Shown: positions 25,245 through 32,011 of the stretch, in pieces
How the letters are laid out: each line of letters starts with the position of its first letter
Position numbering within the stretch: position 1 is the stretch's first letter
Notes under the pieces: model-generated
Database searches by the model: none
What the model was told of the DNA's origin: nothing
Seen by the model: only the letters and a program-made list of their open reading frames with translations
Made by a program: the position numbers and the translations under genes
NCBI GenBank assembly: GCA_019058315.1
Contig: JAHPZH010000003.1
Coordinates: 1-41,568 of the forward strand
DNA: 41,568 bases
DNA from: Candidatus Helarchaeota archaeon
Lineage (GTDB): Archaea > Asgardarchaeota > Lokiarchaeia > Helarchaeales > RDOG01
Reading direction: 5' to 3'

Positions 25245-26714
25245 ATGCCAAAAATAGAATTTAGAAAAAAATTAACCGATGCGACGACAAGTCGTATAGC
25301 AGTGACTTTCAATGATGTAATATTATTACCGAGTTGGACTTCTATTGAGCCAGAAGAGGCAGATGTTTCGACAAACTTAACTAAGGGACTACAGTTGCGG
25401 GTTCCACTCATATCCAGCCCTATGGACACTGTGACCGAGACCGAGATGGCCATAGCTCTTGCTAGAGAAGGAGGTTTGGGTATTATTCATCGTAACCTTT
25501 CAATTAAAGACCAAGTTGAGATGGTTAATAAAGTCAAGAGAAGTGAAGCTAACATAATAAGAGATGTTATTACTATTCGTGAAAATGAAAAAATACAAGA
25601 TGCTATAGAGATCATGAGAGAAAAAGATGTACACGGACTTCCTGTTATAACTAATGAAAATAAGCTCATCGGAATCTTGACAGGGAGAGATGTTCGTTTC
25701 GCTGACGATAATTTAGAAGTAAAAGATCTTATGACCAAAGATGTTATCACCGCATCTAAAGATATCAGTCCAGAGGATGCAAAGAAAATTTTACATAAAC
25801 ATAGAATTGAAAAACTCCCCGTTATAGAAAAAGATGGATCATTATTTGGACTGATTACGACAAAAGATTTGATGTTGAAAGGAAAATTTCCAAATGCTTC
25901 AAGAGATGAAGAAGGGCGTTTACTTTGTGGTGCAGCAATTTCACCATTCGATCTTGAAAGGGCAAAAGCCTTAGAGGAATTTACAGATGTATTAGTAACC
26001 GATGTATCTCATTTTCACAATAAAAATTGCTTTGATGCTACAAAGAAAATCTTAAAAGAAATATCGGTTCCTTTAATTGTTGGAAATATCGGAACTTATG
26101 AAGCAGCAGTTGATTGTATAACTAAATTGGAAGGAATTATAGGATTTCGCGTAGGAATTGGTAGTGGAAGCATTTGTAGTACCAGTGTTGTCACCAGAGC
26201 GGGATCACCTACACTCTTTGCTACTCTAATGAGTGCAGAAGCCAAAGAAGAATTAGGTTCAGATGTTTCTATCATTGCAGATGGTGGAATTACAAATCCT
26301 GGTGATATTGCTGTTGCGCTTACTGCTGGAGCTTCAGCCGTCATATTAGGAAATATCTTTGCAGGTTGTAAAGAAAGTCCAGGAAGATTAGAATCGTTTG
26401 GAGGACGGTTTTATAAAAGATATTATGGAATGGGTTCTCATGCTGCTCGTCAAAAGAGATTTGCATTAGATAGATATAGCAAACCTTCGAAAGAGATAGA
26501 TGAAGGGGTCGAGGGGTGGGTTGCATATCGCGGGACAGTCCATGAAACTGTTATAAAGTATATTGGCGGCTTAAAAGCGGCAATGGGATATATCGGAGCT
26601 AAAACTATAGAAGAAATGTGGATTAATGGAAAATTTGCTAGTGTAAGTGCAGCAGGAATTAAAGAAACACATCCTCACGATGTATTTTTACCGGGAACTG
26701 AAACACAGAGATAA
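25245..26714 (+). CDS. guaB: IMP dehydrogenase with CBS pair
   Basis: SSPMDTVTE, GIGSGSICST catalytic loop, IADGGI, YYGMGS, EGVEG. Confidence 0.95.
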   Translation: MPKIEFRKKLTDATTSRIAVTFNDVILLPSWTSIEPEEADVSTNLTKGLQLRVPLISSPMDTVTETEMAIALAREGGLGIIHRNLSIKDQVEMVNKVKRSEANIIRDVITIRENEKIQDAIEIMREKDVHGLPVITNENKLIGILTGRDVRFADDNLEVKDLMTKDVITASKDISPEDAKKILHKHRIEKLPVIEKDGSLFGLITTKDLMLKGKFPNASRDEEGRLLCGAAISPFDLERAKALEEFTDVLVTDVSHFHNKNCFDATKKILKEISVPLIVGNIGTYEAAVDCITKLEGIIGFRVGIGSGSICSTSVVTRAGSPTLFATLMSAEAKEELGSDVSIIADGGITNPGDIAVALTAGASAVILGNIFAGCKESPGRLESFGGRFYKRYYGMGSHAARQKRFALDRYSKPSKEIDEGVEGWVAYRGTVHETVIKYIGGLKAAMGYIGAKTIEEMWINGKFASVSAAGIKETHPHDVFLPGTETQR

Positions 26715-26780: not shown

Positions 26781-26996
26781 TTAATCAAAGAGGTGTATAG
26801 TAACACCTATTACCTGTAATATTATCGCAACAAATCCTATTATAATTCCAATAGTACATAATGTTTTATCTTCTTTTCTTCCAAGCCCAATTAAACCCAA
26901 GACTATTCCAGCTATCCCTAGCCACCAACGAAGAATAATGCCAAGTAATGAGAGTAATAAAGATAATATACCAAAAATTGGAGATGCTTTTGCCAT
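26781..26996 (-). CDS. Small membrane protein
   Basis: 71 aa, hydrophobic Gly-rich helices. Confidence 0.8.
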   Translation of the reverse strand: MAKASPIFGILSLLLSLLGIILRWWLGIAGIVLGLIGLGRKEDKTLCTIGIIIGFVAIILQVIGVTIHLFD

Positions 26997-27079: not shown

Positions 27080-28984
27080 TTATATAATTATTTTTGAAGC
27101 CATTTCCTTTATTTCACTGAATTTTGTAATTTCACCAGTCCACTTTTCAAAATCATGTTTATAATTTCTTTCTATTTCTTGTAATAAATTCTTTAAATTA
27201 TTGCGGATTTGAGGATTTTCTTTGTTTACAAATAATACACCTATTAAATTATTAGAAAACTCAAAAATAATTTTAATATTGTCACGGTCAATAAGTGCCA
27301 AGTTTTCTTCACCAGTTAAAACTTCATCAAGAAAATTATCCATAGCAGTAATCAAACCAGCTATTAAATTTTCATCAAACGTAGGTAAATCTTTTAATAT
27401 TGTGCTAGTTTTTGAATATATGGGTAATCCTTGATGTTTATAAATAACCATAAAATAATAGGTTTTTAAAGGCTGAAATTTTTTCATTTTTTCATAGTTA
27501 TTTTTTGAAACTTTTTTAATTTCGTTTATTTCAGGTTTATTGATGAAAATCTCATAATGTTCTTTTATAATTTCTTGGATTTGTCTTCCAATTCTACGTT
27601 CCTCTTCTTTAATATTTTCAATCATTATTTTTTCTAATTCCCGTAAATATAAGGTATATAATTCATTGAATTTCTCAAATAGTTGATTACCAAGATGAAA
27701 ATTGGAAAGAAGTAGATAACTTAAACCTTTTATGTATAGATCTAAAAGTTTTTCAAAATCTTTCTCAATCATCAAAATTTTTATAGTTTTTAGATATTCA
27801 TGAGAATGATTAAGAAAAGCTAACCCTAGATTTTTAGTGATATCTCCTATATCTTGATTAAGAAAACTAAAAATGTTTGCAGCAAATGCAAAATACTTAG
27901 TTGCGCTGAAATAATCTCTTTCATTATAATTAATAGTCCCTAAGGCTAAATAATTTAATCCAGCATCAATATTTATCTGTTTATCTTTTTCAAAATAAGT
28001 TAAACTGTCATGATAATATTTTTTTGCTGAATTAAAATCCTGTTTTAAATGATATAACTCTGCGAGATGTCGAAAAAATATCCCTTTAAAGCCATTTGAT
28101 AAGAATTTTGATTCATAAATTAGCTTTTCAATTTGTGAAATATAAGAAAATGCATTATCAAATTTTTTTAATTGCTTAAAATTTAATATTATATTAAAAA
28201 TTGAAAAAATTTGAAGATTATCAATTTGTAATTCTTTAAACCGAGTTGCAGCTTTTGAAAAAGCATCATTTGATTCGTCAATGAAACTTAAATCCTTTAA
28301 AATTAAGGCAAAATTGAAAATTAAACTCGCTATATCATATTGATTAAGCTCTTTTTCGTTATAATTTTCTAATAAACTCATAAGATCATTGTAAATCTTG
28401 GAAAAATCAGGAGTAGATTGATTTAATTTACGTTTTTGATAATTAAGTAAAATTTTGTATTTATAAAATTGTAATAAATCTGAAATTTTCTCAGAATTAT
28501 GAAATTTATCAATTAATAGAAGTAAATCATCTATTTTTAGCCGTTTTTCTTCTGCAGTAATATAATTGCTTATCATTTCTGATTTTATTGGTCTTGAAAA
28601 ATCATAAGTTTCGATTCTAATAATAATTTCTTGAACTTTTTCTGACAATAATGATAAGTTTAAATTTGGATCTAGGAATTGATTGACTTTTAAAGAGATT
28701 TTTTTAATTTCCTCACTAGTATAGAATTTTCCTTCAATACGAATTAGTAAATATACTATTTTTTCGTCAATATAAAAAAATTTTATAATAGAATAGCCTA
28801 AGGCATCCTCAAATATCATAGTTCTTGGGTCTACGGTCTTCTCAAAAACAAATTTTGGAATTTTTTTAAATATGAGATTTTTAATTTTTAATTCATATTC
28901 TTCTTCTAATTTCTTATTAACCTCTAATATTTCCAGTTTTTCATTTGTTAAAATACCTTTAAGTAAAATAAATTTCTGTAACAA
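27080..28984 (-). CDS. TPR-repeat protein with C-terminal longin-like domain
   Basis: TPR-like helices (LAELY...AKKYYHDSL; LGTINY...ATKYFAFA); C-terminal GLPIYS...LIAGLITAMDNF...WTGEI. Confidence 0.8.
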   Translation of the reverse strand: MLQKFILLKGILTNEKLEILEVNKKLEEEYELKIKNLIFKKIPKFVFEKTVDPRTMIFEDALGYSIIKFFYIDEKIVYLLIRIEGKFYTSEEIKKISLKVNQFLDPNLNLSLLSEKVQEIIIRIETYDFSRPIKSEMISNYITAEEKRLKIDDLLLLIDKFHNSEKISDLLQFYKYKILLNYQKRKLNQSTPDFSKIYNDLMSLLENYNEKELNQYDIASLIFNFALILKDLSFIDESNDAFSKAATRFKELQIDNLQIFSIFNIILNFKQLKKFDNAFSYISQIEKLIYESKFLSNGFKGIFFRHLAELYHLKQDFNSAKKYYHDSLTYFEKDKQINIDAGLNYLALGTINYNERDYFSATKYFAFAANIFSFLNQDIGDITKNLGLAFLNHSHEYLKTIKILMIEKDFEKLLDLYIKGLSYLLLSNFHLGNQLFEKFNELYTLYLRELEKIMIENIKEEERRIGRQIQEIIKEHYEIFINKPEINEIKKVSKNNYEKMKKFQPLKTYYFMVIYKHQGLPIYSKTSTILKDLPTFDENLIAGLITAMDNFLDEVLTGEENLALIDRDNIKIIFEFSNNLIGVLFVNKENPQIRNNLKNLLQEIERNYKHDFEKWTGEITKFSEIKEMASKIII

Positions 28985-29019
28985 CTAAACAATCCCATAA
29001 TATCGAGTTATAGATTTTT

Positions 29020-30069
29020 TCAAGTCTTATTTTCTTCTTTTTTTTCTTCAGCATATAATATTTCACCCATTCTATAAAAAGCTTCATCAATATTTTCTCC
29101 AGTTAATGCTGAAGTTTCTATATATTCTAAATTCAATTCTTTTGCGAGCTTTTGAATCTGATTTTGGTCGATCTTTCTAATTTCAACCAAATCGTTCTTA
29201 TTGGCTAATAGGATTGCTCGTGGATCAATTTTTAAATTCTTTCTTATGTCATTATACCAATTGGGAATATTTTCGAAGGATTTTGGTGAAGTTAAATCAA
29301 ATACTAAAAATTGTATTTCTGCTCCAGTGTAAAAATGCTTTCGCATTATTGAGAATTTACTTTGTCCTGCAATATCCCAAATTACAAATTCTATCTTAGC
29401 ATCTTTATATTGAATTATTTTTTCGCTTATGTTTACTCCGATTGTAGGAATGTAAGTTCTTCTAAATGCACTATCCGTAAACCTTAGAATAATTGAGGTT
29501 TTTCCTACAGATGGATCTCCAACAACTATAACCTTATACCTAAGTAATTTGGTTTCTTCCTTATCTTGAATTTCACGAAATGCAACCTGATCCTTAACTT
29601 TAATTTCGGCATTTTGTAAATCTGTCAGAATACCAATTAATTTTTCTTGAAATGTCTTTAATAATTCATTAAATGATCTTTTATCTGCTTTATTTTCTTC
29701 CATATTAATGATTTTTTTTGCATATTCCTCAAAAATCTCTTCAAAATTTGTTATATATTTATAAAATATTAAATCATTAGTTTCATCAAATAAAACAGTC
29801 AAAGAAGCATCAAAAACTCCTCCACGATAAGATTTTTCCTTTATTTCTAAAACTTTTACTATTCCTTTGAAACCTTTTGAGGAAAATGGAATAAAAGCTA
29901 ACGTTTGGGGTAATATCCCTTTTTCTCCGCTTAAGATATTGATGGATTTTAGACTTACTATATTTCTAACTTCGATATCAAGGTCTGAAGGAAGCCAAGA
30001 AAACGCTTCTGGTCCTATTTTTTCATCAAAGCGCGAATATATAATTCCAGCTATTAAACTTTTTTCCAT
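29020..30069 (-). CDS. Fusion of uDENN/longin-like N-terminal domain and Rab-like small GTPase
   Basis: IIYSRFDEKIGP motif; GDPSVGKT, YIPTIGV, WDIAGQ, NKND, ETSAL; no C-terminal prenylation Cys. Confidence 0.85.
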   Translation of the reverse strand: MEKSLIAGIIYSRFDEKIGPEAFSWLPSDLDIEVRNIVSLKSINILSGEKGILPQTLAFIPFSSKGFKGIVKVLEIKEKSYRGGVFDASLTVLFDETNDLIFYKYITNFEEIFEEYAKKIINMEENKADKRSFNELLKTFQEKLIGILTDLQNAEIKVKDQVAFREIQDKEETKLLRYKVIVVGDPSVGKTSIILRFTDSAFRRTYIPTIGVNISEKIIQYKDAKIEFVIWDIAGQSKFSIMRKHFYTGAEIQFLVFDLTSPKSFENIPNWYNDIRKNLKIDPRAILLANKNDLVEIRKIDQNQIQKLAKELNLEYIETSALTGENIDEAFYRMGEILYAEEKKEENKT

Positions 30070-30217
30070 TTTTTATCGTCAATAATTATTTTTGTCAGAA
30101 TTCTTATTTGATTTTAAAATTCAAATAGGTTTATATATTACATTCTTAATAAAATAACATAAAATTTTATATTCAAATATTATAATATTATTAAAAAGTA
30201 ATATTTTTAGAATTATT

Positions 30218-30234
30218 TGATTAATAATTAATCA
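30218..30234. promoter_or_regulatory. Candidate operator palindrome upstream of the ArsR gene
   Basis: TGATTAAT-A-ATTAATCA, perfect 8-1-8, about 20 nt before ATG 30254. Confidence 0.35.
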
Positions 30235-30253
30235 GTTTATTTGTCGATTTATC

Positions 30254-30589
30254 ATGCAGGAAATAGATAATAAAATTGTACGTTTCCTTAAAGTAATAGC
30301 AGATGTAACACGGTTACAAATATTGAATTTTTTAAAAGATGATGAAAAAACAGCTAGTGAAATACAAGATGCCATTAAAAAAAGTCAATCGACCGTTTCT
30401 CAACAGATTAAAATTTTAATAAGTGCGGATCTCGTTTCATATAGAAGAGATGGTGCAAAAAAATATTATAAAATCAAAAATTCTAAAATTTTTGATGTTA
30501 TTACATTAATTAAATCCTATATATCTAATCAGGATAGAGAAACAATTGATAAAATAACATCGATGGACATTTTAGACACTTTACATTAA
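30254..30589 (+). CDS. ArsR/SmtB family transcriptional regulator
   Basis: ADVTRLQIL, SQSTVSQQIKIL, LVSYRRDG..KYY. Confidence 0.9.
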   Translation: MQEIDNKIVRFLKVIADVTRLQILNFLKDDEKTASEIQDAIKKSQSTVSQQIKILISADLVSYRRDGAKKYYKIKNSKIFDVITLIKSYISNQDRETIDKITSMDILDTLH

Positions 30590-30635
30590 AAAAAACTTGA
30601 AATTGAAAAACATTTTGGTAAAGAGATAAATTTAA

Positions 30636-31181
30636 ATGAAAGAGAAAAATTCCAGACAAAAAATAGCTAAAATTCTAATACTGGGATTAGAAAATAGTGG
30701 CAAAACTTCGATTTTGTTAAGTTTAACAAGAGATATAAATTTATTGTCATATTGTTCTTTAAAACCTACAGTAGGTATAAACAGAGTTAATTTTGAGGAT
30801 TCTGATAAAGAATTTAGTATTTGGGATTTTGGGGGTCAGGAACAATTTAGAAAAGACTATTTAAGAGATATGGAAAAACATTTAACGGGTATCAATAAAT
30901 TAATATATGTAATAGATGTTCAAGATAAGAAAAAATATGATTTGACATTGGATTATTTTGAAAATATTGTTGGTTTCCTTAAAAATGTTAAGATTCCTTT
31001 TGAACTTCTAATTTTTTTGCATAAATTCGATCCAGGATTAGAAAAACTTGATCAATATTCAGATGAAAATATAAATTCAAATTTAATTAACAAATTAAAA
31101 AAAATTGTTCCATCTAATTTCAATTCTAAAATTTTTAAAACAAGTATTTACACAGTTTTTCAAAAAGTTCTTATAAAATAA
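30636..31181 (+). CDS. Arf/Rag-like small GTPase
   Basis: GLENSGKTS, KPTVG, WDFGGQ, LHKFD, KTSIY. Confidence 0.9.
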   Translation: MKEKNSRQKIAKILILGLENSGKTSILLSLTRDINLLSYCSLKPTVGINRVNFEDSDKEFSIWDFGGQEQFRKDYLRDMEKHLTGINKLIYVIDVQDKKKYDLTLDYFENIVGFLKNVKIPFELLIFLHKFDPGLEKLDQYSDENINSNLINKLKKIVPSNFNSKIFKTSIYTVFQKVLIK

Positions 31182-31194
31182 TCATAAAAGGAGT

Positions 31195-31650
31195 TTATAG
31201 TTTAGATAAGACTGATTTACTAACTTTTTTGTCAATTTTTACGCCAAGGAAGTTTTCACTATCCTCTTTGATGTTAATTACCTGATTTACATCTTTAAAA
31301 ACTTCCATATTCCCGTTAAAATGTTCAATTTCTTCTTTATAATGTTCTAAAAAATTAGCTTTTAGTTTCTTTAGATATTTTTCTATTTTCTTAAAATTAA
31401 TGTTTGGATTAGAACGACTAACGAAGAACAATCCCGTTTCCTCACAACTTAAAATACAAATTTGTGAATTACTTAATAATATTCTTTTACACTCTTCGCC
31501 ACTTAATTCTTTGATAAAGTTATTTATTGTGGCTATAAAACCCGCAATTAAAACTTTATCTATTTCTTCTTCTACTCTTTGGTCGTAGAGAGGTATGCCA
31601 CCTTCAGTTATAATCCAAATTTCCCTTACAATGCTCATTTTATTTACCAA
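31195..31650 (-). CDS. Stand-alone longin-like domain protein
   Basis: IWIITEGGIPLY...LIAGFIATINNF...FNGNM, same pattern as the C-terminus of 27080-28984. Confidence 0.8.
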   Translation of the reverse strand: MVNKMSIVREIWIITEGGIPLYDQRVEEEIDKVLIAGFIATINNFIKELSGEECKRILLSNSQICILSCEETGLFFVSRSNPNINFKKIEKYLKKLKANFLEHYKEEIEHFNGNMEVFKDVNQVINIKEDSENFLGVKIDKKVSKSVLSKL

Positions 31651-31651
31651 C

Positions 31652-32011
31652 TTATTCTTCTTTAGTTTCTGCAGCTTCTAATAGAATTTTATAAGTTCTA
31701 TAACTCAAACGTACTACTAACAGAACAAAAAAAGCTCCAAATGCATAAACGAATGCTTGCATTACAATTAAAATCTCTGTAAGACCTAAAATAACGCTAA
31801 TTATGTTTACTAAATATCCAATTAGAAAGAATATGATTAATATGTTGATAATTTTCCAATCCTTTCTCATCTTTGCCTTTGGAAATAAGTCTAAAATCTT
31901 AAATACTATTAAATTACAATAGATAAACAAACATATGCCAATAATAGCACATATTATGTTCAAATATCCAAATATATCTATTGTTGATCCATTAAAAATG
32001 TCTGTTACCAT
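31652..32011 (-). CDS. Three-helix membrane protein
   Basis: Three hydrophobic segments; abuts the longin gene. Confidence 0.8.
   Translation of the reverse strand: MVTDIFNGSTIDIFGYLNIICAIIGICLFIYCNLIVFKILDLFPKAKMRKDWKIINILIIFFLIGYLVNIISVILGLTEILIVMQAFVYAFGAFFVLLVVRLSYRTYKILLEAAETKEE

Follow-up and report, generated by a model that had tools for sequence, protein, structure and literature searches.

We analysed a window of 41,568 nucleotides (positions 1 to 41,568, forward strand, of contig JAHPZH010000003.1, assembly GCA_019058315.1) from a Candidatus Helarchaeota archaeon, a Loki-type member of the Asgard archaea, and within it a locus of ~5 kb (27080–32011) that is filled by six real open reading frames (ORFs), here called A to F. 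With somewhat less than even confidence, we read this locus as three juxtaposed units of the expanded Asgard small-GTPase system, among them a longin domain in B that may act as a GTPase-activating protein (GAP) of the GTPase D. The best conserved part of the locus is the link between D and the gene of an ArsR-type regulator, C. An earlier sequence-only reading had described a GTPase/longin signalling locus of six genes that together might form one self-contained switch. The ORFs, the domain calls as a whole and a clustering of GTPase and longin genes above chance were borne out by our analysis; the single switch was not, as synteny splits the block.

Three transcription units at one locus

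Strand and spacing arrange the six genes into three transcription units: B→A (minus strand, 35-nt gap), C→D (plus strand, 46-nt gap, divergent from B at a distance of 184 nt) and F→E (minus strand, 1–13-nt gap). E and D are convergent, and their stop codons lie 13 nt apart. B and A are probably co-transcribed. The features of the locus are as follows.

A, 27080..28984, minus strand: 634 aa, TPR-like with a C-terminal E-family longin (511–627), 35 nt downstream of B
B, 29020..30069, minus strand: 349 aa, longin (1–157), disordered linker and Rab-like GTPase (177–340)
B/C divergent intergenic region, 30070..30253, no strand: holds the 17-nt palindrome TGATTAATAATTAATCA
C, 30254..30589, plus strand: 111 aa, ArsR/SmtB winged helix, first gene of C→D
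D, 30636..31181, plus strand: 181 aa, Rag/Arf-like GTPase consisting of a G domain only, 46 nt after C
E, 31195..31650, minus strand: solo longin fold, likely ATG at 31638 (147 aa)
F, 31652..32011, minus strand: 119 aa, three-helix membrane protein directly upstream of E

The window is AT-rich (~28% GC), and the source genome (G000) comprises 5.79 Mb in 12 contigs with ~5072 called genes. Because a 96%-identical contig of 1842 nt from another study, assembled from an independent sediment sample, bridges B to E with the gene order of the window, the B-C-D-E order is no assembly artefact.

A conserved ArsR-GTPase gene pair

C and D genes are adjacent and co-directional in 24 of the 41 genomes of the class, at 25 loci, as judged from cross-matched C and D hits. 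The call of C as an ArsR regulator was confirmed by matches to HTH_5 (8.8e-14) and NF033788 (74 bits, cut-off 55). The Cys/His metal-binding sites at alpha3 (CxC) or alpha5 are absent from C, which contains no cysteine and a single, terminal histidine. D matches Gtr1_RagA (8.6e-23, 81.4 bits against a cut-off of 22) slightly better than Arf (8.8e-19, 68 bits), and its G motifs are GLENSGKT (G1, 17–24), WDFGGQ (G3, 63–68), HKFD (G4, 129–132) and TSI (G5, 169–171), in agreement with the Rag-like HKxD and TSI recognized earlier. Neither an Arf-type N-terminal helix with Gly2 nor an NKxD motif was found in D; its N-terminus reads MKEKNSRQKIAK and its G4 motif is HKFD. A roadblock dimerisation domain is likewise absent from D, whose 181 residues end directly behind the G domain. 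Among solved structures, D is best matched by 8yl2 and 8zla, two longer “GTP-binding proteins” (342 and 385 aa) that extend past the aligned G domain.

In a well-sampled sister family, the pair opens a longer cassette with the order ArsR, GTPase, MASE3/PAS/HisKA/HATPase kinase and REC response regulator, accompanied by a divergent Lrp/AsnC gene. The REC response regulator was detected in 18 sister-family loci, and the sister-family D orthologs form one clade, with a support of 98 in the Shimodaira-Hasegawa-like approximate likelihood-ratio test (SH-aLRT). Pfam reports nothing besides REC in the regulator. Its output domain is longin-like, with an invariant WDDxxGP motif and a conserved Arg.

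We propose that C→D is an operon of ancient origin in the Lokiarchaeia that joins the gene of an ArsR-type regulator to that of a signalling GTPase made of a G domain alone, and in which C may autoregulate the operon or read out the nucleotide state of D. A weak candidate for an operator is the palindrome TGATTAATAATTAATCA, perfect over its 17 nt (30218–30234), which lies 20 nt before the ATG of C and occurs once in the genome, with 0.035 occurrences expected; the frequency of its AT-rich core is as expected by chance.

Elsewhere in the class, D-clade GTPases in two genomes (L052:5752-10418 in G006; L060:3630-7869 in G003) lie beside proteins of 1221–1332 aa with an E-family longin near the C-terminus. 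The protein from G006, the sole one scanned against Pfam, also has MG4/Big_1-like domains. They resemble giant surface proteins in which the longin would form a cytoplasmic tail.

A folliculin/NPRL2-type longin fused to a Rab-like GTPase

The AlphaFold2 (AF2) model of B, with a predicted local distance difference test (pLDDT) score of 72, shows a b-b-a-b-b-b-a-a domain at residues 6–157, followed by a disordered linker and a G domain. In an exhaustive structure search, the first domain aligned with 8yqg, in which the longin part of a Lokiarchaeota roadblock-longin protein is solved (Z 19.2, root mean square deviation (rmsd) 2.3 Å, 144 residues), and with the longin of Lst4 (FNIP; 4zy8, Z 13.1, 133 residues). 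The profile of the B N-terminus also matches 8yqg by sequence (2.8e-7). G19-P20 of B stands at the start of strand 2 (19–26 in the AF2 model), and this GP motif does not vary among 13 orthologs; 21 of the 24 family members have it. R82-G83 lies in the loop between strands 4 and 5; R82 is kept in 22 of the 24, and the aligned position of 8yqg lacks an Arg. A GP motif at the start of longin strand 2 together with an arginine finger is specific to the GAP longins FLCN, NPRL2, SMCR8 and C9orf72 and to one Asgard longin class (PMC12290439). By its GP motif, the N-terminus of B is a folliculin/NPRL2-type longin, and the conserved R82 would be a candidate for the arginine finger of GAP longins. Weak Pfam Folliculin matches in four of nine B orthologs, and NPR2 on 19% of the members of the Atlas neighbour cluster of B, are leads, not proof.

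The second half of B is Rab-like. Residues 179–336 match the Pfam Ras/Rab domain (5e-48); the best solved matches of the G domain are Rab10, Rab8, Sec4 and a Thorarchaeota Rab (~1e-33 to 1e-35), and a structure search placed it on Rab23 with Z 19.3. No C-terminal Cys prenylation motif is present in B, which ends in ...AEEKKEENKT. B had been described as a uDENN/longin-Rab fusion. Its longin and Rab-like domain stand, and the uDENN assignment goes too far: B has a longin module only, followed by the linker and the Rab-like G domain, with no DENN core or downstream DENN.

The B longin aligned with the output domain of the sister-family response regulator in an hhalign comparison of 24 sequences each (probability 89%, E 2e-6, 127 columns), with GP on GP and R on R. 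By this measure, the two domains are probably homologous. No relation between the B longin and the E-family longin was detected by profile comparison.

A B-family gene divergent from C→D is seen in three genomes, which cover two families: that of the window, G005 (family f3) and G001 (family f1). The loci in G005 and G001 each also hold an E-family longin protein; in G005 a longin-V4R protein follows B, and in G001 a 365-aa longin protein follows D. The G005 protein (L043:3531-4298), encoded directly after the B ortholog, joins a longin (PF13774 Longin, 27.0 against 26.2) to a V4R small-molecule-binding domain in 255 aa. The G005 and G001 loci have no REC-output regulator, and the sister-family loci have no B. 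D orthologs are thus accompanied by what is probably a single longin type in two mutually replacing forms, REC-longin in the sister family and longin-Rab in the order of the window, and this leads us to propose that the B longin may be the GAP of D.

As a best guess from motifs and gene neighbourhood, the B longin would be the off-switch of D. The B→A unit, divergent from C→D, would supply a GP/Arg longin fused to a Rab-like GTPase in place of REC, and then the generic longin of A. The two longins might form a heterodimer like FLCN-FNIP and NPRL2-NPRL3, with A as the non-catalytic partner, and the Rab-like domain of B would take the gating role that REC phosphorylation would have in the sister family. 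The B family has more than 10 paralogs per genome, and some adjoin Rag-like GTPases (G000:C1:451915-455036 and G006:C76).

Residues 511–627 of A match the E-family longin at 9e-23 with a hidden Markov model (HMM) trained on the genome, and the A C-terminus and E match each other (phmmer, 3e-7). The own TPR match of A is weak (E 0.077). We nevertheless agree with the earlier call of a TPR-longin protein, because an ortholog with 54% identity marginally passes Pfam TPR_12 (30.9 bits, cut-off 30.1) and because the Atlas neighbours of A are TPR proteins. This ortholog, the single one, lies in G006 and does not adjoin a B gene, and the N-terminal 500 residues of A have no paralog in the genome.

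A membrane sensory module paired with a longin

The description of E as a solo longin is supported by its AF2 model (pLDDT 83), which shows the longin topology b-b-a-b-b-b-a-a without an N-terminal helix (strands 6–11 and 16–20; helix 28–46; strands 52–54, 59–65 and 70–76; helix 82–105). Foldseek matches include sigma-adaptins, TRAPP Bet5/Trs23, Mon1-Ccz1 and roadblock proteins at E ~1e-5. No Pfam longin scored above threshold in E (Intu_longin_1, 21.3 bits against a cut-off of 23.7), and a word-index homolog search returned only E itself.

F has three hydrophobic helices and no Pfam match. An F-like segment forms the N-terminus of a 1016-aa PAS histidine kinase, with 35% identity over 82 aa that includes the invariant residues of the family. 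Searching 1.8 billion representatives with an F profile retrieved 645 proteins that carry the module N-terminally; the best 150 of these comprise 54 stand-alone and 96 longer proteins. Twenty of the longer proteins were scanned and comprised nine histidine kinases, six GGDEF proteins, one methyl-accepting chemotaxis protein (MCP), one STAS protein, one GP-type longin (P0136) and two proteins without a Pfam domain. The fused kinase, GGDEF and MCP relatives identify F as the free form of a sensory input module with three transmembrane (3-TM) helices, and E stands at the place of the output domain. The proposal of F as a membrane anchor is thereby modified: the three helices are there, and F is less a plain anchor than a free sensory module. 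P0136 (L090:6001-6804), a protein of 267 aa, joins the F-like 3-TM module to a GP-type longin that matches the response-regulator output profile at 2e-44. It is a membrane-tethered form of the putative GAP longin, and its neighbours are housekeeping genes. A fusion of F to an E-type longin was not found among the 150 representatives.

F orthologs are single-copy, and an E-family longin gene stands directly beside F in 13 of 13 relatives with a stand-alone F, mostly in the order F→E and in three of the 13 as E→F. The fetched flanks of the pair in these 13 relatives contained no GTPase gene. Three closer metagenome contigs, with F 64–77% identical, keep the F→E pair and have neither C nor D beside it; their GTPase genes lie 3–7 kb away. 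In a tree of E-like longins, the E of the window groups with the F-linked proteins of close relatives (98), and the longins that follow D-type GTPases form a clade separate from it (SH-aLRT 99). Because these clades are separate, the adjacency of D and E in the window is probably incidental.

F→E is an independent, class-wide pair, in which the E longin would replace the kinase, cyclase or MCP outputs of the fused relatives. The conserved F loop LFPKAK and tail RLSYKTYK are predicted by the positive-inside rule to be cytoplasmic, and E may bind F. Complex prediction for E and F, with both chains given as alignments, returned a score of 0.00, which is not evidence either way. In five genomes of family f4 and genus g10 (L033-L036, L038), F→E lies within a conserved array that comprises a SIR2_2-TPR protein (946 aa), F, E, an ORC/CDC6-like STAND NTPase (~670 aa), a PCI-domain protein, a 289-aa protein and a second longin of 130 aa.

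Clustering of GTPase and longin genes across the genome

With HMMs iterated from the domains of the window itself, we found 118 small-GTPase and 156 longin genes in the source genome. A solo GTPase and a solo longin are adjacent in 24 pairs, where 2000 label shuffles give an expectation of 5.7 ± 2.3 and never more than 17; the size of this enrichment is approximate, as label shuffling ignores tandem duplication. Thirteen of the 24 adjacent pairs are co-directional in the order GTPase→longin. Windows of six genes with at least four GTPase or longin genes number 32, against 0.45 in the shuffles, and merge into eight clusters, of which the present locus is one. For MK-D1, published work states that GTPase genes in general do not share operons with genes for longin or roadblock proteins (PMC10933270); the linkage seen here nuances that statement.

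The genome also encodes ten longin proteins of 1112–1137 aa and dozens of 340–390 aa, which suggests large paralogous longin expansions. A second, larger cluster (L088, G000:C1:450907-461501) begins with a Rab-like GTPase, a longin, a Rag-like GTPase of 318 aa and a longin-Rab paralog of B, and continues with a Rag-like GTPase of 329 aa, a Rab-like GTPase, a regulator with REC and a GP-type longin, a hybrid PAS histidine kinase, a stand-alone REC protein and a GAF kinase. Another locus (L087, G000:C2:85933-90536) encodes a longin protein of 1570 aa, a 172-aa GTPase, a CxxCxxCC protein, a PAS-GAF histidine kinase and, again, a regulator with REC and a GP-type longin.

Two further ORFs lie beside the six genes in the window. 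Just before the locus, a 489-aa ORF (25245–26714, plus strand) looks IMP dehydrogenase-like, with CBS-type repeats and a GIGSGSIC motif. IMP dehydrogenase catalyses the committed step of GTP synthesis; the position of this ORF beside a GTPase cluster is probably a coincidence. Downstream of A, a 71-aa ORF (26781–26996, minus strand) has a sub-threshold match to DUF4190, a small membrane protein (E 5.6e-5, 23.3 bits against a cut-off of 35).

Weighing of the explanations

Several observations count against the composite reading and its GAP step. The homology of the B longin with the regulator output domain rests on one profile comparison; a smaller alignment gave a probability of 1.4%, which is not significant, and direct HMM cross-searches between the two gave no match. 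The target of B might be its own Rab domain or any one of the ~118 GTPases, and B and D are encoded in divergent units, not in one operon. The B/C→D linkage is found in only three of the seven order-level genomes, many of whose contigs are short, and the orthology of B is uncertain because of its many paralogs. Moreover, the D of the window groups weakly and without resolution (SH-aLRT 87) with ArsR-less D paralogs, not with the B-linked ones. As for the palindrome, the 96%-identical relative carries two substitutions in the right arm, with no compensating change among those listed, and no common inverted repeat or operator was evident in the 26 regions upstream of orthologous loci. A more specific form of the proposal is a relay of two GTPases, in which the Rab-gated B longin and the A longin would form an arginine-finger GAP for D and C would read the state of D for transcription, with REC gating in the sister family. 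We regard this relay as decidedly unlikely in its full form.

The same genes could also be neighbours by accident, each unit serving targets elsewhere and the apparent module arising from nothing more than the very large number of GTPase and longin genes and their tandem duplication. The abundance of both gene types among the ~5072 genes fits this explanation, as do the F→E flanks devoid of GTPase genes in 13 relatives, the A ortholog at another site and the gene arrangement reported for MK-D1. On the other hand, GTPase-longin adjacency is enriched ~4-fold, a level reached in none of the 2000 shuffles; B, C→D and a longin protein recur together across two families; and a probably homologous longin type accompanies the D orthologs of the sister family. 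We consider a purely incidental neighbourhood rather unlikely. The single six-gene switch, with F as membrane anchor, E, A and B as platforms for guanine nucleotide exchange factors (GEFs) or GAPs acting on D and the Rab domain of B, and C as transcription factor, has every component type present in a compact layout with gaps of 13–184 nt, and the B-C-D-E order is kept in the 96%-identical relative of another study. Synteny across Asgard genomes, proposed earlier as a check of this idea, speaks against it: the full set was found in none of 40 relatives, C→D (24 of 41 genomes) and F→E (13 of 13 relatives) are conserved separately, B stands beside C→D in three genomes only, and the A ortholog lies elsewhere. 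E also belongs to the F-linked clade and not to that of the D-partner longins, and the single switch is very unlikely. About as improbable is the idea that D and E are a split GTPase-longin protein, an Asgard counterpart of the Rag G domain and its dimerisation domain, with E as the platform of D. The extension of the closest solved D relatives past the G domain (342 and 385 aa) would suit it, and co-directional pairs of a D-like gene and a longin gene are common (G000:C3:220322-221328, L055, L056, L045). In the window, however, D and E are convergent on opposite strands, E is translationally coupled to F, the longins after D-type GTPases are of the other clade, and the topology of E is that of a longin, not of a roadblock protein. 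The composite reading of three juxtaposed units is the one that we retain, tentatively.

Comparison with known systems

In eukaryotes, FLCN-FNIP (Lst7-Lst4) is a GAP for RagC/Gtr2, the NPRL2-NPRL3 pair of GATOR1 for RagA, and C9orf72-SMCR8 for Arf. B resembles these complexes in its longin fold, which aligns with that of Lst4 (Z 13.1), and in the GP at the start of strand 2; it also has a conserved Arg, and its conserved neighbour is a Rag/Arf-like GTPase. A second longin without GP, that of A, beside B recalls the catalytic/non-catalytic heterodimers FLCN-FNIP and NPRL2-NPRL3. Unlike the eukaryotic proteins, B has no DENN module and carries its longin in cis with a Rab-like GTPase; D, unlike the Rags, has no roadblock dimerisation domain; and the locus has no TOR or lysosome context, the GAP role of B being putative.

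Among solved structures, B and D are best matched by Asgard entries. Both Rab-like and Rag/Arf-like G domains and GTPase-longin fusions are likewise found in the set described for Prometheoarchaeum MK-D1 (Tran et al. 2024, PMC10933270; PDB 8yqg, 8yl2, 8zla, 7ezb). In contrast to MK-D1, GTPase and longin genes are significantly linked in the genome studied here, with C→D, F→E and B beside C→D as named pairs.

Actinobacterial conservons (CvnA-D / Mfp) and MglA-MglB systems encode a small GTPase with a sensor histidine kinase and a roadblock/longin-fold regulator (PMC4316618, PMC12236503, PMC9769811). The sister-family D orthologs, which lie in a kinase-response regulator operon, resemble them, and an F-type sensor module with a longin recalls their sensor and roadblock protein. 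In contrast to conservons, the GTPase D is of the Rag/Arf-like and not of the MglA type, the operon starts with an ArsR gene, and the fold of the regulator is that of a longin with GP and Arg motifs and not the MglB roadblock fold. No Pfam match to DUF742 or Robl_LC7 was found among the window genes, and we regard the resemblance as an analogy only. Closer to the window is the sister-family cassette of ArsR, GTPase, MASE3 kinase and REC regulator, which shares an orthologous C→D core and is associated with a probably homologous longin type; the window differs from it in lacking the kinase and the REC regulator and in having the longin-Rab fusion and the TPR-longin divergent instead.

Meaning for Asgard GTPase control

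The kinds of protein encoded here are known Asgard signatures. What is new are the specific linkages, chiefly the longin-Rab variant beside the ArsR-GTPase core, together with F as a sensor module paired with a longin and the genome-wide linkage statistics. A literature search of incomplete coverage returned no paper combining Asgard, ArsR and GTPase, and the PDB codes 8yl2, 8zla, 8yqg and 9jue were not mentioned in any text that it covered.

Small GTPases number about a hundred in Asgard genomes, longin or roadblock proteins are equally numerous, and almost no pairings of a regulator with a GTPase are established. A survey of 2025 asks whether GP-motif Asgard longins serve Arf-related or Rag-like GTPases (PMC12290439). 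The present locus and its relatives narrow this question to a small set of expressible proteins: one Rag/Arf-like GTPase clade is always ArsR-led, and the same probable longin type occurs with it in interchangeable forms, REC-gated or Rab-gated. In addition, the conserved pairing of a 3-TM sensory module with a longin hints at how sensing at the membrane may be passed on to the control of GTPases. If B is indeed the GAP of D, longin-based GAP control of Rag/Arf-type GTPases would predate eukaryotes. Should the relay of two GTPases hold as well, it would foreshadow Rag regulation and name the first native client for the GP-motif Asgard longins.

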